From SAR202 cluster bacterium (GTDB lineage: Bacteria; Chloroflexota; Dehalococcoidia; Lucifugimonadales; VGZY01), in contig VGZY01000004.1 of the NCBI GenBank assembly GCA_016872355.1, positions 15,688 to 79,687 of the forward strand: DNA of 64,000 nucleotides, given 5' to 3'. Shown piece after piece: positions 2,079-64,000 of the stretch (its first letter is position 1; every line of letters begins with the position of its first letter). Under the pieces are notes generated by a model that was not told where the DNA came from, searched no databases, and saw only the letters and a program-made list of their open reading frames with translations. The translations under genes and the position numbers were made by a program.

Positions 2079-2266
2079 CTGTGCGCGGGCGTTTTTCTCT
2101 TTTGACGTTTGGCGATTGCTTCCTCGTGCTCACGCCTGAACTTCTCGTTAAGGTCTTTCCAGTACTTCAGTACTTCGTCCTCCGACAGACCTTCCAGATC
2201 CTTGCGGATGCTTTCGCCGCCTTTGTGCTGGAGTTCTACGGCCTCTATACGCTTAGTCCTTGCCAT
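2075..2266 (-). CDS. Small charged protein downstream of a PIN gene (candidate antitoxin/partner)
   Basis: 63 aa from ATG 2264-2266 (MARTKRIEAVELQHKGGESIRKDLEGLSEDEVLKYWKDL...), preceded by GGAGGTGG. It overlaps the PIN gene's 3' end by 14 nt, and its stop overlaps the carA ATG. Confidence 0.55.
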
Positions 2267-2714: not shown

Positions 2715-2748
2715 AGACCACCTGCACTTTCTTTTAGCCCGGTTAACA

Positions 2749-3462: not shown

Positions 3463-3488
3463 TCAAACGCTCCGCCTTCTAGTCTTCC

Positions 3489-3613
3489 TTCTCTCCCCGA
3501 GGGAGAGGCCTTTGCTGCTCTGAGCAAAGGGTGAGGGCTCAGGCTGTCTGCCCCCTTCTTACCTCTCCCTTGACGGGAGAGGTCTTCGGCGCCCTGGCCG
3601 AAGGGTGAGGGTG
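3489..3613. repeat. Two tandem copies of the double-hairpin repeat module
   Basis: Copy 1 (3489-3539): CTCTCCCC-GA-GGGAGAGG, CCTTTGCTGCTCTGAGCAAAGG, GTGAGGG. Copy 2 (3562-3613): CCTCTCCC-TTGAC-GGGAGAGG, TCTTCGGCGCCCTGGCCGAAGG, GTGAGGGTG. Confidence 0.9.
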
Positions 3614-3631
3614 ACGGCTGCTGCGCCTGTT

Positions 3632-3647
3632 CCCCAGTCCCCAGTCC
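3632..3647. repeat. Heptamer tandem repeat CCCCAGT x2 (+ degenerate unit) abutting the pyrC stop codon
   Basis: tCCCCAGTCCCCAGTCCCTAg; the TAG stop of pyrC (3648-3650, minus strand) is the next triplet. Confidence 0.8.
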
Positions 3648-4970
3648 CTAGCCCCCAAAGACCACCTGCCCGCTGTAAACCGTTGCGGCCACCTTGCCCT
3701 TGAGCGTCGCGCCGTCAAGTGGCGTGTTCTTGCCCTTGGATGCGAACTGCTTTGCGTCCACCTTCCACTCGGCGTCCGGGTCGAAGATGGTCACGTCCGC
3801 GGGCGCCCCTGCCTTCAGCGTGCCGAGGTTCCTGCCCAGGAACTTCGCCGGCGCGACAGTCAGCTTCTCGATAAGCAGCGGCAGCGGCATGCCGCCGGAG
3901 TGCACCAGCGTCATGAGCAGTCCGAGCGTCGTCTCCAGGTTGCTGATGCCGTTAGCGGCCTCGTCGAACGTGCACTGCTTGTCCGTGCGGCTGTGCGGCG
4001 CGTGGTCGGTCGCGATGAAGTCCACAACGCCGTCCTTGAGCGCCTTTACCATCGCGGCAACATCCTCGCGTCCCCGCAGCGGCGGCGAGACGCGCGCGCT
4101 GGTGTCGTACGACGCCGTCGTGAGCGGGTCGAACCGCTTGCCTATGTTCGCGTAGCCCAGCACCGTCTCGTCCGGCAGCGTGAGGTGGTGCGGCGTTACC
4201 TCGCACGTCACGCTCAGGCCGCGCTCCTTCGCGCGCTTCACTATCTCCACGGTGCCCGACGTGCTTGCGTGGGCGACGTGCAGCCTGCCGCCGGTGATTT
4301 CCGCCAGCGAGACGTCGCGCGCCGCCATCGCCTCCTCTGACGAGCGGGGTATTCCGCGCAGGCCGAGGCGCGTGGCCACCCACCCTTCGTTCATGACGCC
4401 CGCGCCTGACAGCTCCTTCACTTCGCAGTGGTTGATGATCGGCAGCCCCAGGCCGGAGGCGTAGCTGAGCGCCTGGCGCATCACGTTGGCGTCGCCCACA
4501 GGGTGGCCGTCGTCGCTGAAGCCGATGACGCCGGACTTCGCCATCTCGCCCATCTCGGCCAGCTCGGCGCCCTTGCTACCCTTCGTCACCGCGCCGATGG
4601 GCAGGACGCGCACGACGCCCTCTTCCTTCGCGCGGCGGTTGACGAAGTCCACTATCGAGCTGTTGTCCATGACCGGGTTGGTGTTCGGCATCGCGCAAAG
4701 GGTGGTGAAGCCGCCGCGTGCCGCCGCCAGCGTGCCGCTCGCGATCGTCTCCTTGTACTCCAGCCCCGGCTCGCGGAGATGGCAGTGGAGGTCAATGAAG
4801 CCCGGGCACACGATCAGCCTCTGCGCGTCGATTACCTTTGCGCCCGCAGGCGGGTTGATCCGCGCGTCGATGCCGGTGATGACGCCGTTCTCGATGAGCA
4901 GGTCCGCGATCTTGTCGATGTTCTGCGACGGGTCGACGATGCGCCCGCCGGAGATGAGAATGGGGGTCAT
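3648..4970 (-). CDS. pyrC: Dihydroorotase
   Basis: 440 aa. Cyclic amidohydrolase motifs PGFIDLHCHLREPG and IATDHAPH. Located in the pyr operon context. Confidence 0.92.
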   Translation of the reverse strand: MTPILISGGRIVDPSQNIDKIADLLIENGVITGIDARINPPAGAKVIDAQRLIVCPGFIDLHCHLREPGLEYKETIASGTLAAARGGFTTLCAMPNTNPVMDNSSIVDFVNRRAKEEGVVRVLPIGAVTKGSKGAELAEMGEMAKSGVIGFSDDGHPVGDANVMRQALSYASGLGLPIINHCEVKELSGAGVMNEGWVATRLGLRGIPRSSEEAMAARDVSLAEITGGRLHVAHASTSGTVEIVKRAKERGLSVTCEVTPHHLTLPDETVLGYANIGKRFDPLTTASYDTSARVSPPLRGREDVAAMVKALKDGVVDFIATDHAPHSRTDKQCTFDEAANGISNLETTLGLLMTLVHSGGMPLPLLIEKLTVAPAKFLGRNLGTLKAGAPADVTIFDPDAEWKVDAKQFASKGKNTPLDGATLKGKVAATVYSGQVVFGG

Positions 4971-6024: not shown

Positions 6025-6566
6025 CTCCTTTGGATCAGGACCTCGTCCACGCCGTCGAGCTCCTGCACGCGGACCTTCACTTCCTCTTCCATCGAGGTCG
6101 GCACGTTCTTGCCCACGTAGTCCGCCCTTATGGGCAGCTCCCGGTGGCCGCGGTCTATCAGCACCGCTAGCTGGATACGGCGTGGCCTGCCGAAGTCGTT
6201 CAGCGCGTCCATCGCGGCGCGGATGGAGCGGCCGGTGAACAGCACGTCGTCCACCAGCACCACCAGCCTTCCCTCGATGGCCACCGGTATGTGCGTGGGC
6301 CGCATGATGGGCCTGCCGCCGGTGGAAAGGTCGTCGCGGTAAAGGCCGATATCCAGCGACCCCACCGGCGGGTCCGCGTCCTCGAACTCGCTGATCAGAG
6401 TCGCCAGCCTGCGCGCGATGGGCACGCCGCGCGAGTGCAGCCCCACCAGGACGATATCCTTCGCCCCGCCGGTGCGCTCCAGCACCTCGTGCGCGATGCG
6501 CGTCATCGCCCGCCGCACCTGGTCGGCGTCCATAATCTGCCGTGTTTCAACCGCCTGCTCGGTCAT
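6021..6566 (-). CDS. pyrR: Bifunctional pyr operon regulator / uracil phosphoribosyltransferase PyrR
   Basis: 181 aa from ATG 6564-6566 ([28 protein letters not shown]...), with PRTase motif [17 protein letters not shown]. The longer 249-aa ORF in the track would read through a terminator and a repeat, so it is rejected. Confidence 0.9.
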
Positions 6567-6570
6567 AACC

Positions 6571-6616
6571 TCTCTCCCTAACCCTCTCCCCTGAGAGGGG
6601 AGAGGGGATAAGAGGG
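6571..6616. repeat. Short-form hairpin repeat (CTCTCCCC-TGAG-AGGGGAGAG flanked by CCCTAACC)
   Basis: Lies between the pyr attenuator terminator and the pyrR start codon. Same subfamily as 32296-32345; both translate as [10 protein letters not shown] in one frame. Confidence 0.8.
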
Positions 6617-6803: not shown

Positions 6804-6829
6804 GGCGGGCGGGCGGCCGATTCGCCCGA

Positions 6830-6870
6830 GAACAGACATAGCGGACCAACCGGTCCGCCCTGTCTGTTCT
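6830..6870 (-). terminator. Long hairpin downstream of the DUF1761 gene (possible terminator, no U-tract)
   Basis: GAACAGACAGGGCGGACC-GGTT-GGTCCGCTATGTCTGTTC on the minus strand, preceded by a CAACTAC-type heptamer array (6878-6905). Confidence 0.4.
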
Positions 6871-6905
6871 TGCCAACTACCAACTTCTAACTACCAACTG
6901 CCCTC

Positions 6906-11006: not shown

Positions 11007-11098
11007 CCCTCTCCCGGTTCGCGCGGCGGAACGGGAGAAGGAGGCTGTTAGCTCACTGCCGACTGCCGACTGCCGACTGCTCACTGCCCACTGCCATT
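11007..11098. repeat. Intergenic composite: hairpin (CCCTCTCCCG-N14-CGGGAGAAGG) + CTGCCGA-type heptamer array
   Basis: Hairpin at 11007-11043; heptamers CTGCCGA x3, CTGCTCA, CTGCCCA, CTGCCAT at 11050-11098. Fills the gap between BNR paralogues 2 and 1. Confidence 0.9.
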
Positions 11099-14399: not shown

Positions 14400-14567
14400 G
14401 TCATGATCATACCATCGCAGGCCCTTACGTACAATTCAGCTATACATTTCCCTCCGGCGGCTTCCGCCACCCGAGCGCCTCGCGCACTTTCTTGCTCTCT
14501 TCCCGCGGGTTTCCTCCAGCTTTTCGCAATGTTACACTCAGTTTGGAAATGCTGCCTTCCCGGTTTT

Positions 14568-14618
14568 CCTAACACCTAACACCTAACACCTAACACCCAA
14601 TCCCTGACACCTAACACC
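14568..14618. repeat. Heptamer tandem array (CCTAACA)4-CCCAATC-CCTGACA-CCTAACA
   Basis: Seven consecutive 7-nt units end 2 nt before the ATG at 14619. They lie in the divergent region between 14399 (-) and 14619 (+). Confidence 0.9.
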
Positions 14619-14987
14619 ATGCCTGACACCAACGTCAAAATTCACGACTATGCCGACGAGCTGATATCCACGCCGCGCGCGCACCTGGCGCTTGATCTGT
14701 CGCAGGACGAGCAGGGGCTGAAGCTCAGCCACGACGGGAAGATGCTCGTGGAGTGCTACATCACGCGGGATGGGATGGCTGCGGGCGGGTTCATGGCGAA
14801 GGCGCTGGGGGTAAAACTTCCACCGCTGGGAAAGGCCGTGAAGGCGCGCGTCTCCACAGGGGTCCTCTTCCGAGCGGTATCTATAGCGTCGCTGGACTTC
14901 AACGTCGAGGAGTCGTTCGAGCTTCTGGAGCGGTGGCTGGAGGAGGCAGAGCTTCAGCGCGGCGGTGAGGATGTGTCGGCGTCGTAG
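14619..14987 (+). CDS. Hypothetical protein (no family recognised)
   Basis: 122-aa ORF MPDTNVKIHDYADELISTPRAHLALDLSQDEQ.... No Shine-Dalgarno is visible because the heptamer array reaches the start codon. Confidence 0.45.
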   Translation: MPDTNVKIHDYADELISTPRAHLALDLSQDEQGLKLSHDGKMLVECYITRDGMAAGGFMAKALGVKLPPLGKAVKARVSTGVLFRAVSIASLDFNVEESFELLERWLEEAELQRGGEDVSAS

Positions 14988-26691: not shown

Positions 26692-26743
26692 CACCCTCAC
26701 CCTTTGCCCAGAGCGGCAAAGGCCTCTCCCTCAATGGAGAGGA
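26692..26743. repeat. Double-hairpin repeat module, reverse orientation
   Basis: CCCTCAC, CCTTTGCCCAGAGCGGCAAAGG, CCTCTCCC-TCAAT-GGAGAGG is the reverse complement of the module at 3489-3613 and 54572-54623. Confidence 0.9.
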
Positions 26744-33088: not shown

Positions 33089-33174
33089 GTAGCCCGCCCC
33101 GATGCATCGGGGCCTGTCTTGCTCGCCGGTGATGCCTGCATGCAACGCGGGCCCCGATGCATCGGGGCGGCTAC
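33089..33174. repeat. 86-bp nested-palindrome element (two GTAGCC-GCCCCGATGCATCGGGGC arms around a 36-nt core)
   Basis: Left arm: GTAGCCCGCCCCGATGCATCGGGGC (33089-33113). Right arm: GCCCCGATGCATCGGGGCGGCTAC (33151-33174). Same architecture and length as 16978-17062. Confidence 0.8.
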
Positions 33175-33225
33175 GTGAAGTCAAATCGCCCCGATACAAC
33201 CGGGCCGCTGTCTTGCCGACGGCTC

Positions 33226-33270
33226 TCTGCTCACTGCCGACTGCCATCTGCTGACTGCCATCTGCCATCC
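33226..33270. repeat. Heptamer array (..CTG-ending units: CTCACTG CCGACTG CCATCTG CTGACTG CCATCTG CCATCCT)
   Basis: Reverse complement is GGATGGCAGATGGCAGTCAGCAGATGGCAGTCGGCAGTGAG, the same GGCAGTC family as in ileS and 11050-11098. Confidence 0.8.
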
Positions 33271-33302
33271 TGCTATAATCGTCCGATAGAACTTCAAGCC
33301 GC

Positions 33303-53875: not shown

Positions 53876-56800
53876 ATGTTCAAGCCGGTCAGCTCTAAAG
53901 TGGACTTTGTAGCCGTCGAGCATGCGATGCAGGAGTTCTGGGACAAGAACCAGGTCCGGCAAAAGTACCTCGAGCGCAACGACGGCGCGGAGAAAAGGTA
54001 CTCCTTCATCGATGGCCCCATCACGGCTAATAACCCCATGGGTGTCCACCACGGCTGGGGCCGCACCTATAAGGACCTCTTCCAGCGCTTCAAGGCCATG
54101 CAGGGCTACGACCAGCGCTTTCAAAACGGCTTCGACGGCCAGGGCCTGTGGATTGAGGTCGAGGTGGAGAAGCAGCTCGGACTGAACTCCAAGCGCGACA
54201 TCGAGAAGTACGGAATCGACAAGTTCATCGAGCTCTGCAAAGAGCGCGTCAGGAAGTTCGCCGCTATCCAGACCAACCAGTCGATCCGCCTCGGCTATTG
54301 GATGGACTGGGAGAACTCGTACCACACGATGTCGGACGAGAACAATTACTCGATCTGGCACTTCCTCAAGGTGTGCTTCGAGCGCGGCTGGGTCTACGAG
54401 GGCACGGACGTCATGCCGTGGTGTCCCCGCTGCGGAACCGGCCTGTCGCAGCACGAGATTGTGACCGAGGGCTACAAGGAGATCACCCACCCCGGCCTGT
54501 TCGTCCGCTTCCCGCTGGTGCAGAATGGCAGTCAGCAGTCGGCAGTCGGCAGTCAGCCGGAGGGGTCTGTTCCTCTCCCTCAGGGAGAGGCCTTTGGGCG
54601 CTTTGGCCCAAAGGGTGAGGGTGTTCCCCTGCCCGAGTCTCTCCTCATCTGGACGACCACTCCGTGGACGCTCACCGCCAACGCCGGCGCTGCCGTCCAC
54701 CCGGACCTCACCTACGTGAAGGTGAAGGTAAAGGGCACCGCGCCCGACAAGGGCGACGAGGTGCTGTACCTCCTGAAGGAGCGCCTGTCCGTCCTCAAGG
54801 CGGAGCACGAGATCCTGCGCGAGATGCCGGGCAAGATGCTTGGGGGCCTCGTCTACCGCGCGCCGTTCGAGGAGCTGAAAGCCCAGGAGGGCGTCAAGCA
54901 CCGAGTCGTCGTGTGGGATGAGGTCAGCCAGAGCGAGGGCACCGGCATCGTGCACAACGCGCCCGGCGCGGGCCAGGAGGACTTCGCTCTCGGCAAGAAG
55001 GAGGGGCTGTCCGTAATCGCGCCGCTGGACGAGTTCGGCAGCTTCGTCGAGGGGTTCGGTTCGTTCACCGGCAAGAGCGTCTTCGAGGTCAACAAGCCGA
55101 TCTATGACAGCCTGCGCGAGAAGGGCGTCTTCTACCGGCTGGACCAGTACAAGCACCGCTACCCCGTATGCTGGCGCTGCAACACAGAGCTCGTCTTCAG
55201 GCTCGTGGACGAGTGGTTCATCTCCATGGACGAGCTGCGGCACATGATCGCCAACGTTGCCAAACAGGCGCGGTGGATACCGGAGTTCGGACTCCAGCGC
55301 GAGCTGGACTGGCTCAACAACATGCACGACTGGATGATCTCAAAAAAGCGCTACTGGGGCCTTGCGCTGCCCATCTACAAGTGCTCCTGCGGCCACTTCG
55401 AGGTCATCGGCAGCGAGACCGAGCTGGGCCTGCGGGCGATCGAGGGGTGGGACAAGTTCCAGGGACACTCCCCTCACCGCCCGTGGATAGACCACGTCAA
55501 GATCGAGTGCCCGCGGTGCGGCGGCAAGGTGTCGCGCATCAAGGACGTCGGCAACCCGTGGCTGGACGCCGGCATCGTGCCGTTCTCGACACTCCAGTAC
55601 CGCCACGACAAGGAGTACTGGAAGAAGTGGTTCCCGGCGGACCTCGTCTCCGAGAGCTTCCCGGGCCAGTTCCGCAACTGGTTCTACTCCCTGCTGACCA
55701 TGAGCACGGCTCTCGAGAACGCCACGCCGTTCAAGAACATCTTCACCTACGCCCTCATGCGCGACGAGAAGGGCGAGGAGATGCACAAGAGCAAGGGCAA
55801 CGCAATCTGGTTCGAGGACGCCGCCGAGAAGATGGGCGCGGACTCCATGCGCTGGCTCTACAGCCGCCAGAACCCGCCGCAGAACCTGAACTTCGGCTTC
55901 AACGTCGCGGACGAGGTGCGCCGCCAGTTCATAATCCCGCTGCGGAACGTTTACAGCTTCTTCGTCACCTACGCGAATATCGACAACTTCGACCCCACGT
56001 CGCCCGCGCCCGCGTTGAAGGACCGTGCCGAGCTCGACCGCTGGATCATCTCGGAGCTCAACAAGCTCGTCGCGGACGTTACGAACGCCCTCGAGAACTA
56101 CAGCCCGGACGGCGCGGCCAAGGCGTGCGAAGAGTTCGTGGAGTACCTGTCGAACTGGTACGTCCGCCGCAGTCGCCGCCGCTTCTGGAAGAGCGACGTC
56201 GACCAGGACAAGCAGTCCGCGTACTTGACGCTGTACGAGTGCCTGACGACGCTCACGAGGCTGCTCGCCCCGTTCATGCCGTTCCTGATGGAGGAGATGT
56301 ACCAGAATCTGGTAGTCGGCAGTCAGCAGTCAGCAGTCGGCAAAGCCAAAGAGAGCGTCCACCTGGACGACTTCCCCGTCTCAGACCCATCGAAGATCGA
56401 CACACGCCTGTCGGACGCTACCCGACTGGCGATGAAGCTCTCCAGCCTGGGCCGCTCCGCGCGCGCCAGGACCTCCATCAAGGTGCGCCAGCCGGTCGAG
56501 AAGCTCCTCGTGAAGCTGCGTGCGACGGAGGAGGCGGCCCTGCTGGAGCAGGTGGCCCCACAGGTGCGCGATGAGCTGAACGTCAAGCAGGTAGAAGTGC
56601 TCAAGGACGAGACGCAGGTCATGACCATCGACATCAAGCCGAACCTGGCGCTCCTGGGTCCCGAGTACGGCGCAAACATGCGCAAGGTCGTCGCCGCGCT
56701 CCAGGCGCTGCCGCCGATGGAGGTCTACGCGCAGGCGTCGTCCGGCAAGCAGGTCAAGGCGGGCGAGTTCACGCTGGAGCCTCAGGAAGTCCTCGTGAAC

Positions 56801-57142
56801 ATGTCCGACAAGCCGGGCTACTCGTTTGTCACAGAGGGCGGCTATGGCGCGGCGGTCACGACGGCCATCTCCCCGGAGCTGGCCCTTGAGGGCCACGCGC
56901 GGGAGCTGGTCCACCTCATCCAGAACATGCGCCGCACCGCGGACTTCGACATCGCCGACTACATAGTCACCTACTACCAGGGCGACGCCGAGCTGGACAG
57001 GGTGGTCGCCACCCACGGCGACTACATCCGCCAGGAGACGCTGTCGCGCGACATCGTCAAGGGCGCGGCCCCGTCCGGCGCCCACGCCGAGCAGCACAAG
57101 GTCAACGGCATGGCCGCGACCATCGGGGTGAAGCGGGCGTAG
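53876..57142 (+). CDS. ileS: Isoleucine--tRNA ligase (type 2), carrying two repeat-derived in-frame inserts
   Basis: 1088 aa from ATG 53876 (GAGGTGG upstream). Motifs PITANNPMGVHHGWGRTYKD (HIGH-class), WTTTPWTL (CP1), KMHKSKGN (KMSKS). Confidence 0.95.
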   Translation: MFKPVSSKVDFVAVEHAMQEFWDKNQVRQKYLERNDGAEKRYSFIDGPITANNPMGVHHGWGRTYKDLFQRFKAMQGYDQRFQNGFDGQGLWIEVEVEKQLGLNSKRDIEKYGIDKFIELCKERVRKFAAIQTNQSIRLGYWMDWENSYHTMSDENNYSIWHFLKVCFERGWVYEGTDVMPWCPRCGTGLSQHEIVTEGYKEITHPGLFVRFPLVQNGSQQSAVGSQPEGSVPLPQGEAFGRFGPKGEGVPLPESLLIWTTTPWTLTANAGAAVHPDLTYVKVKVKGTAPDKGDEVLYLLKERLSVLKAEHEILREMPGKMLGGLVYRAPFEELKAQEGVKHRVVVWDEVSQSEGTGIVHNAPGAGQEDFALGKKEGLSVIAPLDEFGSFVEGFGSFTGKSVFEVNKPIYDSLREKGVFYRLDQYKHRYPVCWRCNTELVFRLVDEWFISMDELRHMIANVAKQARWIPEFGLQRELDWLNNMHDWMISKKRYWGLALPIYKCSCGHFEVIGSETELGLRAIEGWDKFQGHSPHRPWIDHVKIECPRCGGKVSRIKDVGNPWLDAGIVPFSTLQYRHDKEYWKKWFPADLVSESFPGQFRNWFYSLLTMSTALENATPFKNIFTYALMRDEKGEEMHKSKGNAIWFEDAAEKMGADSMRWLYSRQNPPQNLNFGFNVADEVRRQFIIPLRNVYSFFVTYANIDNFDPTSPAPALKDRAELDRWIISELNKLVADVTNALENYSPDGAAKACEEFVEYLSNWYVRRSRRRFWKSDVDQDKQSAYLTLYECLTTLTRLLAPFMPFLMEEMYQNLVVGSQQSAVGKAKESVHLDDFPVSDPSKIDTRLSDATRLAMKLSSLGRSARARTSIKVRQPVEKLLVKLRATEEAALLEQVAPQVRDELNVKQVEVLKDETQVMTIDIKPNLALLGPEYGANMRKVVAALQALPPMEVYAQASSGKQVKAGEFTLEPQEVLVNMSDKPGYSFVTEGGYGAAVTTAISPELALEGHARELVHLIQNMRRTADFDIADYIVTYYQGDAELDRVVATHGDYIRQETLSRDIVKGAAPSGAHAEQHKVNGMAATIGVKRA
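54521..54636. repeat. Heptamer array + full double-hairpin module embedded in frame in ileS
   Basis: AATGGCAGTCAGCAGTCGGCAGTCGGCAGTCAG, then CCTCTCCC-TCA-GGGAGAGG, CCTTTGGGCGCTTTGGCCCAAAGG, GTGAGGGTG. Encodes QNGSQQSAVGSQPEGSVPLPQGEAFGRFGPKGEGVPLPE. Confidence 0.9.
56312..56343. repeat. Heptamer array embedded in frame in ileS
   Basis: GTAGTCGGCAGTCAGCAGTCAGCAGTCGGCAA encodes VVGSQQSAVGK between ..EEMYQNL and AKESVHLDDFP. Confidence 0.85.
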
Positions 57143-57185
57143 CAGAAACTATTGCACAGGTGCTATAGTATTTCGAGCGGACTGT

Positions 57186-57476
57186 ATGATGGTCCAGTAC
57201 ATCGATCACACCGGCTCCGTTATTGTCCTCACCAACGAGGCGACGGCCCACATCTTGACCAGGCATCGAGAGATGGCCGGGGAGATGCATAAGATCGCAT
57301 CGGTGCTGCTGGAGCCTGATAGAGTCCTGCCCGACAGCCGGTTTGCGGGCACCTACAGGTATTACCGGGCGTTTGACAGCATGGCGATGGGCCGGAAGTT
57401 CATCTGCGTGGTAGTGAAGAAGCTGCCGAACGAAGCGTTCGTGAAGACGGCGTTTCTTACTGGCAGGATCAGGTAG
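57186..57476 (+). CDS. Small conserved-looking protein, candidate toxin of a two-gene module (family not firmly recognised)
   Basis: 96 aa. ..VLTNEATAHILTRHREM... and ..FICVVVKKLPNEAFVKTAFLT.. Lies 9 nt upstream of a DUF2283-like gene. Confidence 0.5.
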   Translation: MMVQYIDHTGSVIVLTNEATAHILTRHREMAGEMHKIASVLLEPDRVLPDSRFAGTYRYYRAFDSMAMGRKFICVVVKKLPNEAFVKTAFLTGRIR

Positions 57477-57485
57477 AGGTGGCAA

Positions 57486-57956
57486 TTGGACAAGAAGATC
57501 AGCCTGTGGTACGACCCGGATGTGGACATACTTGAGGTCCTTTGGGATGAAGCCCCAGGTACTTTTGAGCCCATCGAGTCCGATGAGCGCATCCTCGAAC
57601 GAATTGACGAAAACGGTGAAGCCCTCGGTTTCATGATCCAGGAATTCAGTACGCTCAAGGCGGAATCCTGGATCGACTTTCATGTCGGGGGGCGTCCTCG
57701 ACCCGGCCTGGAGAACATGACCGTTGAAATGGCCGCCCGGGAGATCGGTGTTTCGGGCAGTCGCATGCGCCAGTTGCTGGCCGCCGGGAGAATTCAGGGC
57801 GCCCGAAAGCTCGGACGTGATTGGATAGTGCCGACGCCCGTGCGGATGGTCCCAGGCGAGCGTGGGCCGATCGGTGTTGCAGGCTCAAGGCCGGCGAAGT
57901 CCGCCCGTTCGTCAAAAAAGCCCTCTCCCGCCCCATCTGCAACATCGCAAATCTAA
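57486..57956 (+). CDS. DUF2283-like domain fused to a helix-turn-helix domain (candidate antitoxin/regulator)
   Basis: 156 aa. N-terminus ISLWYDPDVDILEVLWDE...DENGEALGFMIQEFS (DUF2283 pattern). C-terminus MTVEMAAREIGVSGSRMRQLLAAGRIQGARKLGRDWIVP (excisionase/MerR-type HTH). Confidence 0.6.
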   Translation: MDKKISLWYDPDVDILEVLWDEAPGTFEPIESDERILERIDENGEALGFMIQEFSTLKAESWIDFHVGGRPRPGLENMTVEMAAREIGVSGSRMRQLLAAGRIQGARKLGRDWIVPTPVRMVPGERGPIGVAGSRPAKSARSSKKPSPAPSATSQI

Positions 57957-58082
57957 AACGCTTCCGCACCATAGGGGCGGCCCAGTGTGGCCGCCCTTAA
58001 CCTTTCTGCGAAGATTGACGCCCGGAGCGTATTATCGGCCAATATGGTATACTTCCTGCCCCGCACACCAGGAAGGAGTACC

Positions 58083-58638
58083 ATGAATCGCATCGTCGTC
58101 CTGGGCTCGACCGGCTCCGGCAAGACCACAATGGCGAAGCAGCTTTCACAGCGGCTCGGCATCCCGCACATCGAGCTCGACGCCTTTCGCTGGGACCCGA
58201 ACTGGACAGAGACGACCAACGAGGTCTTCCGCCCCCGCGTCGCCGAGGCGGTGAAGGCCGACGCGTGGATCATGGACGGCAACTACGGGTTCGCGCGCGA
58301 CCTTAGCTGGCCGATCGCGGATACGGCAGTGTGGCTGGACTACTCCTTCCCCCTGGTATTTATGCGACTCACTCGCCGCATCTTCAGGCGCAGCATCTTC
58401 CGCGAGAAGCTGTGGAACGGAAACGTGGAGAGCGGCTGGAAGCACTTCGTGACGAAGGACTCGCTTTACCTGTGGCTCGTCCGCAGCCACTGGCGCAGGC
58501 GCCGTCAATTGGCCCAGCTCATGGTTGATCCCCGCTACGCCCACATCCACTTTAACCCGCCTCAAGTCTGCCCGCCAGGCGCGCAAGTGGCTGTCTTCCG
58601 TTTCACCCCAGCCCGGCCCCCGGCCTACTCCACCGTGA
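58083..58638 (+). pseudogene. P-loop kinase (adenylate-kinase/FlaR-like), frameshifted near its 3' end
   Basis: ATG 58083 (GGAAGGAG upstream): MNRIVVLGSTGSGKTTMAKQLSQRLGIPHIELD.... After ..DPRYAHIHF (TTTAACCC, 58551-58558) the expected tail TRLKSARQARKWLSSV...* is in the +1 frame, ending at TGA 58636-58638. The track's 449-aa ORF is an artefact of the shift. Confidence 0.7.
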
Positions 58639-59089
58639 ACGGCAAGTTTCTAACCAGCTTGTCCCCTACCCATACGCGGATAACATATGTCCCCCCGCTG
58701 TCAATCGCGCCGAGATCGGTCCTGTTGACGCCGGCCACCAGAGTAGCGGAGTTGTTTGACTTCACCGTCCCCGACCTGCCGCGCTCCTGCAGGCAGAACC
58801 GCGTCACGACCTCCGACTTTGCGTCCGTCTCCACTACAACCGCGTCAGTCTTCCCAAACCTCTGCCCGTTCTCACCAATCGGAGGCGAGCCGCTCCCGAA
58901 CTCCATGCTGGTGAAGAATTGGTCGAAGGCGGCGGTATCCGCGCTACCGGGCCCGCTGCACTCCTGTCTGGTAGGCAGCGGTGTGCCGTTAACGGATTGC
59001 GGTGCGCTCTCGCCACACGCGGCTATGGCAAGAAGGGCCAGAAACGTCAGTACCATCGTGGCAGCCGACGGCCGGAGCGACGCGATCAT
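58625..59089 (-). CDS. Lipoprotein (hypothetical)
   Basis: 154 aa from MIASLRPSAATMVLTFLALLAIAAC (lipobox LAIAAC). Confidence 0.6.
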   Translation of the reverse strand: MIASLRPSAATMVLTFLALLAIAACGESAPQSVNGTPLPTRQECSGPGSADTAAFDQFFTSMEFGSGSPPIGENGQRFGKTDAVVVETDAKSEVVTRFCLQERGRSGTVKSNNSATLVAGVNRTDLGAIDSGGTYVIRVWVGDKLVRNLPFTVE

Positions 59090-59268
59090 CTTGACCTCCA
59101 TCGGGCGATATTTGGCCGGAGGGACGCCCAAGTCCCGCGTATCATGCGCCCGGGCGACTCTGGGGTGTAAAGGCGGAACGGCAGCAAGAAACTCGCACAT
59201 CGCACAAATCCGACCGGATGTCGTATCATCCACTCGCGCGCATTCTGAGACACCGCACGGAGGGACTC

Positions 59269-60231
59269 ATGGCTACTATCGGCAGCGGGAAGTATACCTA
59301 CGAGATTACCGGCCAGGACTGGGGCAAGCTTCTTGAGGGGTGGTCCTACAAGGAGGCGACGGCCGTAGCCGTGGACGCGAAGGACAATGTATTCGTGTTT
59401 GGCCGCGGCAAGCCGTCAGTCATCGTCATGAACAGGGACGGCGAAGTCCTCCGCTCATGGGGCGACGGCCTCTTCACTAACCCCCACGGAATAACCATCG
59501 GCCCGGACGGCGCCGTCTACTGCGTGGATGTCGGCGACCATACCGTGCGCAAGTTCACGCCCGAGGGCAAGCTGCTGATGACCCTCGGCACGCCGGGCAA
59601 GGCGACGATGGACAAACCCTTCAACCGCCCTTCCCACGCGGCCGTAGACCCGCGCGATGGCAGCCTCTACGTATCGGACGGCTACAACAACGCCCGTGTC
59701 CACAAGTTCTCGCCGGACGGCAAGCTGCTGCACTCCTGGGGCCGGTCCGGTACCGACCCCGGCGAGTTCAACATTGTCCACAACGTTGCGGTGGACAGGG
59801 AAGGCTGGGTCTACGTCGCGGACCGGGAGAACCATCGCGTACAGGTCTTCGACTCAAAGGGCAAGTTCGAGTCCCAGTGGGTGAATCTTGCGCCAGCGTC
59901 GTGTATCTACGTGGATACGCGCGCCGAGCCGGTAGTATACGTGGGCGAGTTCTATGCCGGCCTGCCGGAGTCACCGAGCGGCTACGGCAACTGGACGCAA
60001 TCTCGCCTTGGCCCGCGCCTTACGGTCCTGGACCGCAAGGGCAAGGTTCTGGCGCGCGTGGGCGACCGGCCCATGGGCCTGGAGACGGGCCAGTTCGTCG
60101 CGCCTCACGGCATCGCCGTGGACTCGAAGGGGGACGTGTACGTCGCGGAGGTATCGTTCTCGATCTACGGCTCAAAACAGACGCCGCCGCGCACCGTTCG
60201 GTCATTCCAGAAGCTCGTGAGGAAGGGATAG
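59269..60231 (+). CDS. NHL-repeat six-bladed beta-propeller protein (peptidylamidoglycolate-lyase-like)
   Basis: 320 aa from MATIGSGKYTYE. Repeats include PHGITIGPDGAVYCVDVGDHTVRKF, PSHAAVDPRDGSLYVSDGYNNARVHKF, VHNVAVDREGWVYVADRENHRVQVF and PHGIAVDSKGDVYVAE. Confidence 0.7.
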   Translation: MATIGSGKYTYEITGQDWGKLLEGWSYKEATAVAVDAKDNVFVFGRGKPSVIVMNRDGEVLRSWGDGLFTNPHGITIGPDGAVYCVDVGDHTVRKFTPEGKLLMTLGTPGKATMDKPFNRPSHAAVDPRDGSLYVSDGYNNARVHKFSPDGKLLHSWGRSGTDPGEFNIVHNVAVDREGWVYVADRENHRVQVFDSKGKFESQWVNLAPASCIYVDTRAEPVVYVGEFYAGLPESPSGYGNWTQSRLGPRLTVLDRKGKVLARVGDRPMGLETGQFVAPHGIAVDSKGDVYVAEVSFSIYGSKQTPPRTVRSFQKLVRKG

Positions 60232-62055
60232 GGTCACCTGCCCCCATGGCTCAAAGAGCAGCGTTGCCCCGGGCTCGGGCAGGTCCACAACCGCCACCTC
60301 GCTCCCATCCGCTATGGTGTGCAGGTAACCTGTGATCCGCGGGTCCAGCCTGTCGTAGACCTCAAAATCGGGGATTATCACGCGCGTCACGCGGCTCCCG
60401 AGTTGCAGCTCTCCGGAACCGCGTTCCAGGTTCTGCAGGTTGTAGTCCGTGCGCCCGCCGGAGGCCGCGTAAAGGTGGCCCCACTGCCCTTGCAGGTCCC
60501 ATCCCACGCCATAGACGCCGTACCGCGGCAGGTAGTAGGACGCCTGCCTGAAGCTCCCGCTGAGGGTCGGCATCGTCAGGACTACCGTCGACTCGGCGGG
60601 GTACCGACCGATGAACTCGGTCATCGATTTCCAGTGGAGATCGCTGGCGCGCGCGTTGTACTGGCGGAGCCGCCAGTCCTCCACAAACCCGTCCCCCGCG
60701 GCGACGTAGACGGCCTCTTTTATCGCCTCGTCGTTCCCGGGAAGAGACATTGCCTGGAGCCTGCCGAAGCTGACGATGTTCGCAACGACAAGCAGGGCGA
60801 TCGCCCCGGCGCCCGCGTTCGATAGCCTGGGGATGGGGGCGAGAACGCCGAGTGTGGCGCTATTGGGGATGAGCCGGCGCGCGGCGACAGGCTGGAGCCG
60901 TTCGCCCGCCAGCATTCGGCCGAGCCAGATGAAGCCGATCGGTAGCACCATGAGCACGTAACCAACCTGCCCTGTATGCACGAGCAGGTACGTGGCCAGG
61001 CTGGGGATCGCCCAGAGCAGGAAGAAGCGACTGTCTTCCCGGGACAGCGGCGCAGGCCTCACCCCCGCGATCAGGCAGATCACCCAAACGACCAGCCCAA
61101 CATTCATCCCGATCGCCAGGCCCACAGCCACCAGGCCCATGTTCTGTATGAGACCTGTCGGGTCCATGGTGAAGATGTATGTCCTGAACCCGACCAGAGA
61201 CGCGAGGGCCATCGACTCCCTCACATACGCGTCGAGGCCGCCCGACGATACCAGCAGCGGGACCAGCCACGCAGTGTTCAGTGCGACAAACGCCGCGAAG
61301 ATGCGCGCCCTCGTCTGCCACGGGAAGGCCCAGAGCGTGTACAGCCAGATGGGGACCAGCAGCACCAGACCGCTCTGCCTCAGCGCGCCCAGTAGCGCCA
61401 GCAGGAACGTCGCCACAGCCAGGTGTCCCAGTGAAACGCGCTTGCGGGCCACGTAGCACGCCCACAGCGCCGGGATGGCCACCGCGGCTTCGACGGCATA
61501 CGTCAGCGCCACGGATGAGTAGTACCAGAGCACGGGCGACGTGCCGAAGAGCACGGCCACGGCGAGGGCGTGCCACCGGGGAAGGAAGCTCCTCGCGAGC
61601 CCGTAGAGCGCCGCCGTCGCTATGCCCCCGCTGAGGGTGCTCAGGAGCGTGAGCGCTGCATTTGCGTCGCCGGTAAAGGCCATCAGGGCCCGGCCCAGTC
61701 CAACATAGCCGATGTATCCGGGCGGGTGCGGCTGGTGGTGGAGAACGTCGAAGTGCTGCAACGCAAGCGCGAAGTTGACCGAGTCCCAGTTGATCAGGTA
61801 CCCGGCCCGGAAGGGCGCCCTGAGTGCCACAAACGCCAGAGCTATGAGCGCCGCGATCTGCCAGTCCCGTATCTCTGCCCGGCCTGCGAGGCGACGCAAC
61901 CTGCCCTGGGTGGCTGGTATCTCTGTCTTCTCCGGCGCGGGGGCAATCTCCAGGGTTTTGGCAGTCCATTGCTGAGGTTGGTCCATCAAACGTGACTCAT
62001 ACTCCAGGAAACGGGTTGAGGTGGGCGCGAGCGCGCCATATTTGAACCGTAACAT
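60202..62055 (-). CDS. Polytopic membrane glycosyltransferase-like protein (GT39/ArnT/PMT-type, DUF2723-like)
   Basis: 617-aa ORF with more than 10 TM helices. The loop motif NWDSVNFALALQHFDVLHHQPHPPGYIGY recalls PMT/DUF2723 families. The true start may be MDQPQQW at 61986. Confidence 0.55.
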   Translation of the reverse strand: MLRFKYGALAPTSTRFLEYESRLMDQPQQWTAKTLEIAPAPEKTEIPATQGRLRRLAGRAEIRDWQIAALIALAFVALRAPFRAGYLINWDSVNFALALQHFDVLHHQPHPPGYIGYVGLGRALMAFTGDANAALTLLSTLSGGIATAALYGLARSFLPRWHALAVAVLFGTSPVLWYYSSVALTYAVEAAVAIPALWACYVARKRVSLGHLAVATFLLALLGALRQSGLVLLVPIWLYTLWAFPWQTRARIFAAFVALNTAWLVPLLVSSGGLDAYVRESMALASLVGFRTYIFTMDPTGLIQNMGLVAVGLAIGMNVGLVVWVICLIAGVRPAPLSREDSRFFLLWAIPSLATYLLVHTGQVGYVLMVLPIGFIWLGRMLAGERLQPVAARRLIPNSATLGVLAPIPRLSNAGAGAIALLVVANIVSFGRLQAMSLPGNDEAIKEAVYVAAGDGFVEDWRLRQYNARASDLHWKSMTEFIGRYPAESTVVLTMPTLSGSFRQASYYLPRYGVYGVGWDLQGQWGHLYAASGGRTDYNLQNLERGSGELQLGSRVTRVIIPDFEVYDRLDPRITGYLHTIADGSEVAVVDLPEPGATLLFEPWGQVTLSLPHELLE

Positions 62056-62142
62056 ATATGTTAACTACGACTAATCACACGAATCGGCGATTGAGCGCCG
62101 GGCAAGGTGTTACCGTTCAATAAGCCGTTGGTGGTATCGACT

Positions 62143-63579
62143 TCACGGAACAGTTGTGGTGGCGGGTTCAAGCGTTAGCTTCATGATGAAGACGTTATAG
62201 TCGCCATAGAATGTGGACATGGCAAAATACACGTCGGACCCTTCGATATGGGGAAGCATGAGCGGGCCGTACAGGGAATGGTAGTCATCGGAGTGAACGA
62301 CAGGGCGCTCGTCGCCCCACGGTCCGGTGAGCGAGTCCGCAGTCCGCAGAACAATGTTGTGCGTAACCTCGTTCAGGTACATCATCAGCCACTTTTCGTG
62401 GTATTCGCTCCAGCGGACCGAGAGCTCCCCGACCGGCCAACCGACCACCTCCGCGGCTTCAGCCGGCTCGCGCGTCCAGGCGGCGCCGTTCCAGTACTCA
62501 TACCGGTCATACTCCAGGAGCTGCTCCCCGGGCACGCGAAACAGCTTCAGCGGCCCGAAACGGCTTGCGCCGGTGCCGAAGACGTAGATGTTCCCCTCAT
62601 GCTCCACCATTGAGACCATGGCGTAGGGCGAGTTCCCTATCCACCTGGCAGTCTCGTGCTTGGTCCACGTGTTGCCCATGTCATCAGAGAACGCAAAGCC
62701 CGACCCGTTCACGACGGGTATCTTGTATCCCCACCATTGCTCTTCCCAGTCCTTTACCAACATGTAGTGGATGTACATCCGGCCCCCGAACGCGATGGCC
62801 GAAGTGGGCACGGCCGTGTACTCTTCCTTTGGCTTTTTGAGCGCTGAGATAAGCTCCTTCGCGTTGCCGTCCGCCCCTTTCAGCATGTCGGTCACGATGT
62901 AGCCTGCTTCCGGGTGGCGCTCCACTATCCCCAGCGTGCTGGTGCGCCATTGCGCGCCTTCTACGCCGTCCCGCCCCCACGTATCCCCGAAGACCATATT
63001 AATGCGGCCGTCCATCTCAAAACTGATGCCGAGGTCCGTTCCGACAACGTTCCACCGCTCGTCGGTCTTCCCGGCCGAGCCGCGGCCCGTAAGTTTCGAC
63101 ACTAGCCTCGGATTCTTTACCACGAGGCCGGGAGTAAGCAGGGCAAGAGTGCTGGTTGTGCTGGTGGAGGCAGTGGCGGGCGCCATTGGAGCGGGGCTCG
63201 GAGTCGGGGGAGCGGCGGTCGGGCCGGCTGAGGGAATGAGGGGCCCCGGCGTTGCGGCATCAACCGGCGCGGGCCCAGGTGTGGCTGTCGGAGGGGGCTC
63301 TGTTGGAGTCGGGACAGTCTGCGTTGCCTCGGGCGATGGGCGTGACGACACCGGAATAAAGGCGGGATATCGGGTCGGTGTGATGGGGATGGGCGCGGAG
63401 ACGGAGCTCCTGCCCATGGGGGCGTGCGAAGGTATAGTCTTGGCTGTCAGGCCTATCTCGTTGCTGACGGCTATCGCTGCCCCCACCCCGATAGAAAGCA
63501 TCCCCGCCGCAAGCAGACCCAGCCGCCTCCGCATCAACCGCCACCTCACAACAAAGCGATCACATATCCACTTTAGCAA
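62143..63579 (-). CDS. Membrane-anchored DUF4185-like (glycoside-hydrolase-like) protein with Pro/Thr-rich linker
   Basis: 478-aa ORF with an N-terminal TM and a PT-rich region. The rest (GTDLGISFE...MVFGDTWG...WRTSTL...FSDDMGNTW) is typical of DUF4185. Confidence 0.6.
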   Translation of the reverse strand: MLKWICDRFVVRWRLMRRRLGLLAAGMLSIGVGAAIAVSNEIGLTAKTIPSHAPMGRSSVSAPIPITPTRYPAFIPVSSRPSPEATQTVPTPTEPPPTATPGPAPVDAATPGPLIPSAGPTAAPPTPSPAPMAPATASTSTTSTLALLTPGLVVKNPRLVSKLTGRGSAGKTDERWNVVGTDLGISFEMDGRINMVFGDTWGRDGVEGAQWRTSTLGIVERHPEAGYIVTDMLKGADGNAKELISALKKPKEEYTAVPTSAIAFGGRMYIHYMLVKDWEEQWWGYKIPVVNGSGFAFSDDMGNTWTKHETARWIGNSPYAMVSMVEHEGNIYVFGTGASRFGPLKLFRVPGEQLLEYDRYEYWNGAAWTREPAEAAEVVGWPVGELSVRWSEYHEKWLMMYLNEVTHNIVLRTADSLTGPWGDERPVVHSDDYHSLYGPLMLPHIEGSDVYFAMSTFYGDYNVFIMKLTLEPATTTVP

Positions 63580-63627
63580 AGAAATGGGCGCACTGGGTTA
63601 GACTACAAGGGCAGGCCATGGGGGTGT

Positions 63628-64000
63628 TTACCCGGTGCGTTCAGCGAGGGTGACTACGGCGGTGTTGATCTGGCCGGCGCGGATGTACTCCACCTGCACA
63701 TGGTCTCCTACCTTGTAAGACCAGAGCACGTGCAGCCACGTCTCCACGTCCGGCGTCTGGAAGCCGTCTATCCGCGTGATGACGTCGCCTATGCGGATAC
63801 CGGCAGTGTAGGCCGGCCCCGTGCGGGAGATCTGCGTCACAATCACGCCCTCGCGCACAGGCAGCCGCAGCTCATTTGCGATGGCGCTCGTGACGTCCTG
63901 GCCGTCGAAGCCTATCGACGGGCGCACCACGCGCCCGAAGTTGATGAGGCTCTCTATCACGGGCACGGCGGTATCCGCGCTGACTGCAAAGCCCAGACCG
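63628..64000 (-). CDS. HtrA/DegP-family serine protease, C-terminal PDZ part only (5' end beyond window)
   Basis: PDZ-like ..RPSIGFDGQDVTSAIANELRLPVREGVIVTQISRTGPAYTAGIRIGDVITRIDG... The frame stays open to the window edge. Confidence 0.7.
   Translation of the reverse strand, partial: GLGFAVSADTAVPVIESLINFGRVVRPSIGFDGQDVTSAIANELRLPVREGVIVTQISRTGPAYTAGIRIGDVITRIDGFQTPDVETWLHVLWSYKVGDHVQVEYIRAGQINTAVVTLAERTG

Follow-up and report, generated by a model that had tools for sequence, protein, structure and literature searches.

A heptanucleotide array in frame in the isoleucyl-tRNA synthetase gene of a SAR202 bacterium, probably a tolerated passenger

The ileS gene studied here lies in a 64-kb stretch of a metagenome-assembled genome (MAG) contig of the SAR202 Chloroflexota, hereafter the window. 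Its neighborhood is that of its relatives, with a methyltransferase gene upstream and trypsin-PDZ and BrkB genes downstream, and no second ileS is found within the window. In a full-length protein search the nearest other IleS was 70% identical, and a 181-residue query around the array described below returned no match above 65% identity and no near-identical fragment. Two inserts interrupt the conserved protein, at positions that we call site 1 and site 2. The site-2 array consists of 4.6 tandem GCAGTCR units (Table 1). Codon 813 begins at base 56312, and codons 813-823 are read as VVGSQQSAVGK between MYQNL on the N-terminal side and AKESVHL on the C-terminal side. This places the array in a short variable loop that joins a helix with MYQNL at its end to the ESVHL segment. 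Tandem Repeats Finder reported positions 56314-56342 as a repeat of period 7 with 4.1 copies and 90% matches, and both this result and direct reading of the units give at least three head-to-tail 7-nt copies, as in heptanucleotide simple-sequence repeats (SSRs). In the orientation read in ileS, GCAGTCR is free of stop codons in all frames. An independent Logan assembly (SRR7990526), 100% identical to the window over 8.2 kb (55774-64000), contains exactly the same array, which is thus not an assembly artefact; the JGI assembly 3300020193 is also 100% identical and covers window positions 1-4713 only.

Table 1. Repeats and flanking sequences in the window, and heptamer units at site 1 of ileS in SAR202 relatives
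Feature	Position	Strand	Sequence or description
ileS	53876..57142	+	1088-codon ORF; type 2 isoleucyl-tRNA synthetase, 1088 aa
Site-1 array in ileS	54527..54559	+	GCAGTCA GCAGTCG GCAGTCG GCAGTCA; GCAGTCR family, same codon phase as site 2
Two-hairpin dispersed element	54573..54621	+	CTCTCCC..GGGAGAGG, variable stem, GGGTGAGGG
5' flank of site 2	56303..56311	+	CAGAAT CTG; codons of conserved Gln-Asn-Leu (MYQNL), abutting the array
Site-2 array in ileS	56312..56343	+	GTAGTCG GCAGTCA GCAGTCA GCAGTCG GCAA
3' edge of site 2	56344..56350	+	last A of the Lys823 codon (56344), then GCC AAA (Ala-Lys)
GCAGTCR-family array	11051..11098	-	GCAGTGG GCAGTGA GCAGTCG x3 GCAGTGA; intergenic
GCAGTCR-family array	33214..33274	-	intergenic; includes GCAGATG variant units
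CCCCAGT array	3630..3655	+	between two minus-strand genes
CCAACTA array	6873..6899	+	intergenic
CCTAACA array	14566..14630	+	7.3 copies; lies upstream of ORF 14619-14987 and overlaps its ATG
Site-1 unit, L077			CCCCAAC
Site-1 units, L078			GGGGCTA + CCCCAAC/CCCCAGT
Site-1 unit, L079			CCCGTAC
Site-1 units, L202			CAGGGKT + CCGAACC
Site-1 unit, L204			CCCCCAA
Site-1 units, L205			GGGKHCR + CCCCCAA
Site-1 units, L206			ATCAGGC + CTGACAC

These observations bear out the first-pass annotation in its claim of a second in-frame heptamer array in ileS, which shares its unit family with the first and with the array at 11051-11098. Over a 25-nt stretch the site-1 and site-2 arrays are identical at 24 positions, and both encode GSQQSAVG. 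At site 1, the insert of 38 residues also includes the translated product of a two-hairpin dispersed element, which is found in frame in carB as well.

Heptamers are strongly enriched in the window. The sequence GCAGTSRGCAGT occurs 17 times with at most one mismatch against 1.78 expected, a count that none of 100 shuffles reached, and five period-7 arrays of three or more copies were counted against 0.05 in shuffles, with none for periods of 8 to 12. In total, the heptamer arrays of the window number at least seven and use four types of unit; four of the arrays belong to the GCAGTCR family. The 11051-11098 array sits between two minus-strand genes and beside a hairpin, while the 33214-33274 array adjoins three copies of the palindrome GCCCCGATGCATCGGGGC (33096-33205). 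A gap of 16 nt separates the CCCCAGT array, whose unit we take to be that of STRR1, from two copies of the two-hairpin element (3491-3537 and 3563-3611). A hairpin accompanies five of the seven window arrays. As a general rule this association was rejected, since the flanks of 86 metagenome arrays fold no better than controls taken 330-400 nt away (means of -20.5 and -22.0 kcal/mol, respectively, computed without GC correction). Rfam at gathering thresholds gave no match anywhere in the window.

We compared the site-2 loop with that of other isoleucyl-tRNA synthetases. Between NL and SVHL there are 9 residues in 91 homologous proteins and 10 in 89, against 14 in the window IleS, so the 11 residues that the array had been said to add amount to a net gain of only 4-5. 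The closest relatives have VGSVNGGK or VGSVNGGKE at this place, and the solved IleRS 8c8w has only NLTGKSVHL. A Ser/Gln/Gly stretch like that of site 2 was found in none of 240 homologous proteins and none of 66 genomic loci; the first of the two refuting results named in the first-pass annotation, an equivalent stretch encoded by non-repetitive DNA in orthologues, was therefore not obtained. At the DNA level, the relatives L078 and L202 read CTG GTC GGT TCG GTG AAC GGT GGT AAG and CTG GTC GGG AGC GTC GAC GGC GGC AGC, respectively, and the window reads CTG GTA GTC GGC AGT ... GTC GGC AAA GCC, the two ends of the array coinciding with the ancestral V-G-S and G-K codons. On its 3' side, the end of the array (GGC AA, 56339-56343) together with positions 56344..56350 gives GGC AAA GCC, which resembles the loop end of another relative (L203: GGC AAC GCC), and this region is probably the ancestral 3' edge of the loop. 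In these alignments the array takes the place of the ancestral loop, which is replaced and not merely extended, being lengthened by just 4-5 residues.

The codon usage of the site-2 array is foreign to ileS. G or C occupies the third codon position in 8 of 13 codons of the site-2 insert and 23 of 38 of the site-1 insert, compared with 958 of 1037 in the rest of the gene (61-62% vs 92%; Fisher p = 0.002 when only site 2 is counted and 2e-9 when the two inserts are pooled). In an AlphaFold2 model of IleS, pLDDT falls below 50 at residues 817-822 and 218-250, which correspond to the two inserts, and the site-2 insert is predicted to be a disordered surface loop, a coil of Ser, Gln, Gly, Ala and Val.

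The site-2 array belongs to a long-known class, the heptanucleotide simple-sequence arrays of cyanobacteria and many GC-rich bacteria. According to PMC4679880 and PMC4692102, heptamers are the most abundant class of long SSRs (Mrazek et al. 2007, as cited there), and those of seven nucleotides are reported as under-represented in coding DNA. Compared with these repeats and with the cyanobacterial STRR of Calothrix and Nostoc, the arrays of the window are alike in their head-to-tail 7-nt units in a few to ~10 copies, in having several unit families per genome that are dispersed and mostly placed in spacers between co-directional genes, and in their GC-rich free-living host; they differ in that the host is a SAR202 Chloroflexota and in that the site-2 copy is in frame in an essential gene. 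Our literature search found no description of heptamer arrays in SAR202 Chloroflexota. Rehm et al. (2015, PMC4692102) described GGGAATC and GGGGAYT heptamers in Xanthomonas and Nostoc, which likewise show a marked preference for about four units, a location between aligned ORFs and much variation among related genomes. However, those are G-tract repeats that form G-quadruplexes, whereas GCAGTCR lacks G-tracts and has no predicted structure. The TAACTGA repeats of Beggiatoaceae and cyanobacteria (MacGregor 2015, PMC4679880) are similar in being a favored heptamer found at many loci and in distant taxa with its dispersal unexplained, and in having their orientation limited by stop codons, since on the opposite strand GCAGTCA reads TGACTGC, which includes TGA. 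Moreover, TCAGTTA (the reverse complement of TAACTGA) and GCAGTCR share a CAGT core. In contrast, the TAACTGA repeats are concentrated just upstream of start codons, where a role in translational regulation has been proposed, and the site-2 array is in mid-gene and translated.

Taken together, we favor, with a probability of roughly 70%, the reading of the site-2 feature as a GCAGTCR heptanucleotide simple-sequence array that arose in place and is now a functionless, tolerated and effectively frozen passenger. Either slipped-strand duplication or a copy made from another array would have produced it, and its seed may have been the ancestral V-G-S codons (GTC GGC AGY), in which one unit (GTCGGCAG) was already matched. 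This seeding idea rests on the coincidence of three plus two codons, and it is only suggestive because the Ser codon is TCG in two relatives and AGC in one. As the gene is essential and a 7-nt unit is not divisible by 3, adding or dropping one or two units would presumably be lethal and purged. The array is therefore most likely frozen, and "passenger" is likewise the most likely description of it. Two observations, the AAT codon at site 2 and the 24/25 identity with site 1, are left unaccounted for by the passenger reading. In addition, it gives no reason for the preference for period 7, or for the recurrence of the same unit at dispersed loci and in many unrelated metagenomes, a pattern that could point to a sequence-specific process other than plain slippage.

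Those same two observations, and the composite that the site-1 array forms with the dispersed two-hairpin element, lend some weight to a mobile element or targeted insertion, in which a GCAGTCR array that is, or is carried by, a small mobile element with a defined 5' terminus (..CAGAATG or RATG/GCAG, the slash marking the boundary) or with a CAGAAT-like target would have entered ileS twice. We consider this unlikely. The first-pass annotation had proposed CAGAAT as a preferred target or a conserved element terminus after noting that both inserts start right after it, and the junctions that it quoted are present (gtgCAGAATggcagtcag at 54518-54535, tacCAGAATctggtagtcggcagtcag at 56300-56326, and GGAATGGCAGT on the reverse complement of 11088-11098). 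CAGAAT is indeed found at site 2, but there the conserved Leu codon CTG stands between it and the array; since the hexamer consists of two host codons, those of the conserved Gln and Asn in MYQNL, with the Leu codon next, the junction lies inside host sequence and is mostly not an element end. CAGAAT is rare, occurring 20 times on both strands of the 64 kb, and the probability that one copy falls within 0-3 nt upstream of any particular array is ~6e-4 unconditionally but ~0.1 given the conserved residues. The choice of Asn codon is nevertheless unusual, with AAC used 36 times and AAT four times in ileS outside the inserts and AAT in none of 18 GC-rich relatives at the site-2 Asn.

The RATG/GCAG start shared by three of the four GCAGTCR arrays of the window (GCAGAATG, GGGGAATG and GCAGGATG) leaves some doubt on our rejection of a terminus. 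Yet GCAGATG also occurs as an internal unit at 33214-33274, so the ATG may be a mere unit variant. Singleton GAATGGCAG sites in the window (34026 and 52319) turned out to be ordinary Glu-Trp-Gln codons. We compiled at least 143 GCAGTSR arrays from at least 120 metagenome stretches (at least 146 with the window arrays). Among the matches listed, none of the metagenome arrays has a CAGAAT or AATG junction, and their ends decay gradually through degenerate units; the heptamer arrays in the ileS genes of relatives have junctions unrelated to CAGAAT.

The structure of site 2 also argues against insertion of an element. No target-site duplication was found in the sequence flanking the array, the GCAGTCR unit is not self-complementary and forms no palindromic fold or terminal inverted repeat there, and the RNA fold of 56285-56370 is not special (z = -0.46). 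A 32-nt insertion would break the frame unless 17 nt were lost simultaneously. The comparison with Rickettsia palindromic elements and other in-frame MITEs (PMC10969869) is instructive on both sides. As with those, a repeat family lies in frame in unrelated housekeeping genes at fold-compatible positions where orthologues are without it, and the site-2 array sits in frame within a conserved gene whose orthologues lack it. The good fit, however, is the two-hairpin element at 54573-54621, with which the site-1 array forms a composite and which recurs in carB. Unlike the Rickettsia elements, the site-2 array is a tandem of ~32 nt with no palindrome, conserved peptide domain or evidence of transposition.

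Site 1 opens a wider view than the passenger reading of site 2. Inserts of at least six residues are present at site 1 in 24 of 120 IleS homologues, and 7 of the 8 SAR202 relatives whose DNA was read have period-7 arrays in this loop, built from at least eight different units (Table 1). Often in these fills a G-rich array precedes a C-rich one that is approximately its reverse complement. In L079, the unit family of the ileS array is also found in intergenic DNA. By comparison of these sequences, the site-1 loop has been filled independently by different heptamer units in related SAR202 genomes, and in our reading the process behind the site-2 array is at work throughout the clade. In-frame heptamer arrays are present in the Pol I 5'-3' exonuclease of another genome (L137) too. 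GCAGTSR units recur, among the matches listed, at dispersed loci and in many unrelated metagenomes. We also noted an in-frame GCAGTGG array in a putative coiled-coil, possibly SMC-like, protein (L127), for which Pfam gave no confirmation.

The independent filling of the site-1 loop in at least eight lineages with at least eight units, the paired G-rich and C-rich fills and the recurrence of CAGT-core units in unrelated phyla led us to consider an active process of 7-nt repeat writing in SAR202. It would go beyond plain slippage, nucleating on unit-like host DNA and writing disordered loops into essential proteins; at site 2, the nucleation site would be the unit-like GTCGGCAG. We regard this as a speculative idea with a low probability of being correct.

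An improbable alternative to the tolerated passenger is that selection keeps the Ser/Gln/Gly-rich loop for protein function (flexibility, binding or regulation), with the periodicity of the DNA as a by-product of recent duplication. The intact reading frame and the GSQQSAVG peptide common to both inserts would suit such a linker, and repeat-made disordered regions can be selected, as in Borgs (PMC9879509). The Borg tandem repeats resemble the arrays described here in being lineage-specific, recent and, when in ORFs, disordered and of low complexity, and homologous proteins gain them independently at the same place. However, Borg repeat units inside ORFs are all divisible by three, the opposite of the 7-nt GCAGTCR, for which the frame is kept by total length; an amino-acid repeat of the Borg type would have a period of 7 residues (21 nt) here, and fewer than two periods are present. 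Against a selected linker, the repeat has a period of 7 nt instead of 3 or 21 nt, its sequence equals that of non-coding arrays on the same contig, the codon usage is unadapted and, as said above, the homologues have no such stretch at site 2.

A contingency switch, in which 7-nt slippage would toggle ileS or a C-terminally truncated form within the population, is very improbable. The frame argument behind this suggestion of the first-pass annotation is sound, as the unit is not a multiple of three and copy number cannot change by one or two without a frameshift. In some pathogens, moreover, phase variation is driven by heptamer SSRs (PMC8262952, PMC12721329). The gene, on the other hand, is a syntenic housekeeping ileS, not a dispensable one, with no second copy in the window to stand in for it. 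The array starts at codon 813 of 1088, where a frameshift would cost the protein the last part of its anticodon-binding domain and all of its C-terminal domain. It has four imperfect units only and keeps the same length in the one other assembly that covers it, so the copy-number switch found no support. Neither does the array act as a frameshift signal by its sequence, as its units are not slippery X XXY YYZ heptamers. Finally, an assembly or sequencing error is hardly credible: short repeats are a known source of such errors and the contig comes from a MAG, but the Logan assembly agrees with it, the frame is intact and the other heptamer arrays of the window have a consistent structure.

By itself, the tolerated site-2 array is a small, neutral-looking loop insertion. 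It is a clean example of a non-multiple-of-three SSR surviving in an essential gene, a survival that depends on three things together: an orientation without stop codons, a total length that is a multiple of three, and a loop that is disordered. We find the clade-wide pattern at site 1 more interesting than the site-2 array alone. In SAR202, heptamer arrays together with small hairpin repeats seem to be a main source of new loops in housekeeping proteins, here IleRS and CarB and elsewhere Pol I. Inserts of this kind lengthen marker proteins and upset their alignment in phylogenomics and in MAG quality control, and the SAR202 arrays make the old question of the 7-nt preference approachable in an abundant uncultured lineage of oceans and lakes.

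The 1088-codon ORF at 53876-57142 (+) encodes isoleucyl-tRNA synthetase, and its reading frame is not in doubt because its third-position G+C is ~91% (the window has ~62% G+C). Within this gene, nucleotides 56312-56343 (site 2) read as the units GTAGTCG, GCAGTCA, GCAGTCA and GCAGTCG followed by GCAA, for which Tandem Repeats Finder returned period 7, 4.1 copies and 90% matches. Codon 813 starts at base 56312, and the array is translated as VVGSQQSAVGK between MYQNL and AKESVHL. The second in-frame heptamer array that the first-pass annotation had reported in ileS is thus confirmed by sequence, repeat detection and translation. The Logan assembly of SRR7990526 is 100% identical to the window over 55774-64000, array included; therefore, the array is no assembly artefact. 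It also far exceeds what chance would give: GCAGTSRGCAGT, the two-unit pattern, is present 17 times in the window with one mismatch or none, against 1.78 expected, and five period-7 arrays reach three copies against 0.05 in shuffles; period 6 is represented by two such arrays and periods 8-12 by none.

We placed the arrays with a GC3-based gene map. All five located outside ileS are intergenic, and the genes flanking three of these arrays are co-directional. The longest overlaps the ATG of the ORF 14619-14987 and may lie in a 5' leader. An 18-nt palindrome, GCCCCGATGCATCGGGGC, occurs three times (two exact, one 83%) at 33096-33205, directly beside a GCAGTCR array; within 6820-6899 a long hairpin, GAACAGACAGGGCGGACC..GGTCCGCTATGTCTGTTC, abuts the CCAACTA array, and another, CCCTCTCCCC..GGGGAGAGGGG, lies at 6566-6608. 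The other ileS insert (site 1) is composed of a GCAGTCR array and a 49-nt two-hairpin element (54573-54621). This element reads CTCTCCC-loop-GGGAGAGG, a variable stem with its pairing kept, and then GGGTGAGGG; its five copies show compensatory changes in 5 of 16 predicted pairs, two of them (in ileS and carB) are translated in frame, and the element had no match in Rfam.

Heptamer arrays and two-hairpin elements in the window, in related ileS genes and in metagenome contigs
Feature	Position	Strand	Context
GCAGTCR array	54527-54559		ileS site 1
GCAGTCR array	11051-11098	opposite to ileS arrays	spacer
GCAGTCR array	33214-33274	opposite to ileS arrays	spacer
CCCCAGT array	3630-3655		spacer
CCAACTA array	6873		spacer
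CCTAACA array, 7.3 copies, decaying into CCCAATC/CCTGACA	14566-14630		spacer; longest in window
Two-hairpin element	3491-3537
Two-hairpin element	3563-3611
Two-hairpin element	26694-26741	-
Two-hairpin element	L201 (JGI 3300020193 assembly):8434-8487		in frame in carB (Pfam CPSase_L domains), just beyond window start
GCAGTCG array of metagenome contig L137	971-996 (locus + strand coordinates)	-	between N-terminal PF02739 and SAM-fold PF01367
CCCCAAC	L077:1940-2056		ileS site 1 of relative
GGGGCTA, then CCCCAAC/CCCCAGT	L078:4870-4986		ileS site 1 of relative
CCCGTAC/CCCAAAC x7	L079:8059-8196		ileS site 1 of relative
CAGGGKT x4.9, then CCGAACC x4.1	L202:1212-1334		ileS site 1 of relative
CCCCCAA x3	L204:3625-3723		ileS site 1 of relative
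GGGKHCR, then CCCCCAA-type	L205:3625-3735		ileS site 1 of relative
ATCAGGC, then CTGACAC	L206:3625-3735		ileS site 1 of relative

To compare the loop, we aligned 66 genomic IleS loci together with 120 close homologues. In relatives, the MYQNL-SVHL segment is a short variable loop with the consensus V-[GR]-S-[VA]-[ND]-G-G-[KR]-E; 91 proteins have 9 residues there and 89 have 10. With 14 residues, the window protein has therefore a net gain of just 4-5 residues and not the addition of 11 first attributed to the array. The array edges are those of the ancestral loop, and relatives share its opening V-G-S and closing G-K. The window loop reads CTG GTA GTC GGC AGT CAG CAG TCA GCA GTC GGC AAA GCC, the relatives L078 and L202 have CTG GTC GGT TCG GTG AAC GGT GGT AAG and CTG GTC GGG AGC GTC GAC GGC GGC AGC, and that of L203 ends in GGA GGC AAC GCC. 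The stretch GTCGGCAG, a heptamer unit extended by a single base, equals the ancestral V-G-S codons if the serine is AGY. From such a pre-existing near-unit the array may have grown in place, or it may have been copied in by homology, a suggestion we make tentatively because two relatives have TCG for that serine. No Ser/Gln/Gly stretch occurs at site 2 in any of 240 homologues, close and distant, so the reading of this segment as repeat-derived withstood the comparison with orthologues. Other inserts were seen there: SAPLK[ATV]GL directly after (Y/H)(Q/R)NL in P0061, P0063, P0075, P0090 and P0099, 8 residues likewise in P0026, P0031 and P0088 (as SASLKAGL in P0026 and P0088), and ARPELVEGR in P0060; such inserts could represent further small dispersed repeats.

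IleRS 8c8w, the best relative with a solved structure, reads NLTGKSVHL at site 2, and has five residues at site 1 versus 39 in the window protein. AlphaFold2, run on an alignment of 62 sequences, gave a model with a mean pLDDT of 80.4; both inserts, at 218-250 and 817-822, are among the segments where pLDDT falls under 50. For the site-2 insert GC3 amounts to 8/13 and for that of site 1 to 23/38, versus 958/1037 in the rest of ileS (Fisher p = 0.002 for site 2, 2e-9 for both combined); insert codon usage is therefore foreign to the gene. RNA folding around the site-2 array is not stronger than in shuffled sequence (z = -0.46). The GCAGTCR orientation has no stop in any frame and TGACTGC, the reverse complement of GCAGTCA, contains TGA; the A-containing site-2 array is translatable only in the observed orientation.

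The CAGAAT preceding both ileS inserts had been taken as a sign of a preferred target or a conserved element terminus. Within this genome the compiled arrays speak only in part against a shared junction. CAGAAT is rare in the window (20 occurrences on both strands), two arrays lie just downstream of one, and GCAGAATG at site 1 resembles the first units of both intergenic arrays, GGGGAATG and GCAGGATG. The 'ATG' is perhaps a mere unit variant, since GCAGATG is also an internal unit within 33214-33274. Gln-Asn is not ancestral at site 1, where relatives have D/G-R-x-G. At site 2, CAGAAT is not an element end: it represents the codons of the conserved Gln-Asn in MYQNL, and the conserved Leu codon CTG stands between it and the array. 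With these residues given, the Asn codon is the sole free choice and AAT is the less used one (4 of 40 Asn codons in ileS, inserts excluded), which makes the conditional chance ~0.1; none of 18 GC-rich relatives has AAT at this position. Across genomes the shared junction did not hold. A JGI metagenome scan for GCAGTSR x3.7 returned at least 120 stretches from soils, sediments, and fresh and sea water, and none of the 143 arrays among the matches listed has a CAGAAT or AATG junction, their ends fading through degenerate units. The heptamer arrays in relatives' ileS also have junctions unrelated to CAGAAT. We consider it quite unlikely that GCAGTCR arrays have a defined terminus or target.

Among the matches listed, arrays of GCAGTGG, GCAGTGA, GCAGTCG and GCAGTCA are common and reach 20 units; their contigs differ widely in G+C and come from samples of soil, sediment, freshwater and marine origin, and some loci carry inverted array pairs (e.g., L148, L153, L177, L191). 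Of 101 interior metagenome arrays among the matches listed, no more than 16 lie in long open frames, so intragenic arrays are a minority, in agreement with the literature. In L137 (contig Ga0335077_10029476), which belongs to an unrelated organism, a Pol I 5'-3' exonuclease contains in frame a GCAGTCG array and, after it, CCCGACT units.

A copy-number switch, also proposed for the site-2 array, finds little room in this gene. A one-unit slip at codon 813 of 1088 would shift the frame, so that the protein would lose its C-terminal domain along with the last part of the anticodon-binding domain, and isoleucyl-tRNA synthetase is normally essential. The array has only four, imperfect units, and the one independent assembly covering it agrees with the window. 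Relatives have a methyltransferase gene upstream of ileS and trypsin-PDZ and BrkB genes downstream; the latter two also lie downstream on this contig, a few kilobases further away, and by gene order the window ileS is the syntenic housekeeping copy. Among 5.8 billion proteins the nearest IleS, after the identical SAR202 cluster bacterium MAG protein encoded on an 84.7-kb contig, has 70% identity, and the nearest GTDB genomes are Dehalococcoidia/Chloroflexota MAGs (66%); searches with the full protein and with the segment around the array found no further IleS above 70%. On these grounds we regard a switch as very unlikely and infer that the site-2 array is probably a tolerated, frozen passenger.

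The array has the defining features of a heptanucleotide simple-sequence repeat (SSR), and not those of a contingency locus, a MITE or a Borg-type amino-acid repeat. The first interpretation is partly supported, its observation fully. According to Mrazek et al. (2007), as reported in PMC4679880 and PMC4692102, heptanucleotides are the most abundant long SSR class in many genomes, particularly in large, GC-rich genomes of free-living organisms; the authors noted that the repeats seen in genes are those with units divisible by three, and as an origin they proposed polymerase slippage with a footprint of 7 nt. Arrays of heptamers were preferentially located between aligned ORFs and under-represented in coding DNA according to Rehm et al. 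(PMC4692102), who also saw four units preferred. MacGregor (PMC4679880) reported a single favoured heptamer that occurs across phyla, with no mechanism evident, its orientation constrained by stop codons. Rickettsia palindromic elements are small repeats that colonise housekeeping genes in frame (PMC10969869), and Borg repeats, whose units inside ORFs are all divisible by three, make disordered segments at homologous positions (PMC9879509). A literature search, itself incomplete, found no paper linking heptamer repeats to SAR202. By itself the site-2 array is of modest interest, being of a kind already known. We take CCCCAGT to match the unit that makes up the STRR1 repeat of cyanobacteria, and units with a CAGT core presumably recur across phyla.

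Site 1 is the loop that precedes LLxWTTTPW, a motif of the editing domain, and 24 of 120 homologues carry inserts of at least 6 residues there. We read the DNA of eight SAR202 relatives with such inserts, and seven contain period-7 arrays built from differing units, at least eight in all; the remaining one, L203, has a 15-nt repeat in place of the heptamer array. In L079 the site-1 unit family is present in a spacer too. Several inserts consist of a G-rich array and then a C-rich array that are roughly reverse complements, as in L202, where GGGKTCA precedes an array whose reverse complement is GGGTTCG. CCCCAGT units occur in the inserts of L077 and L078, as in a window spacer. The repeated filling of one IleRS loop by differing heptamer arrays across SAR202 is the more interesting result and merits a genome-scale follow-up.
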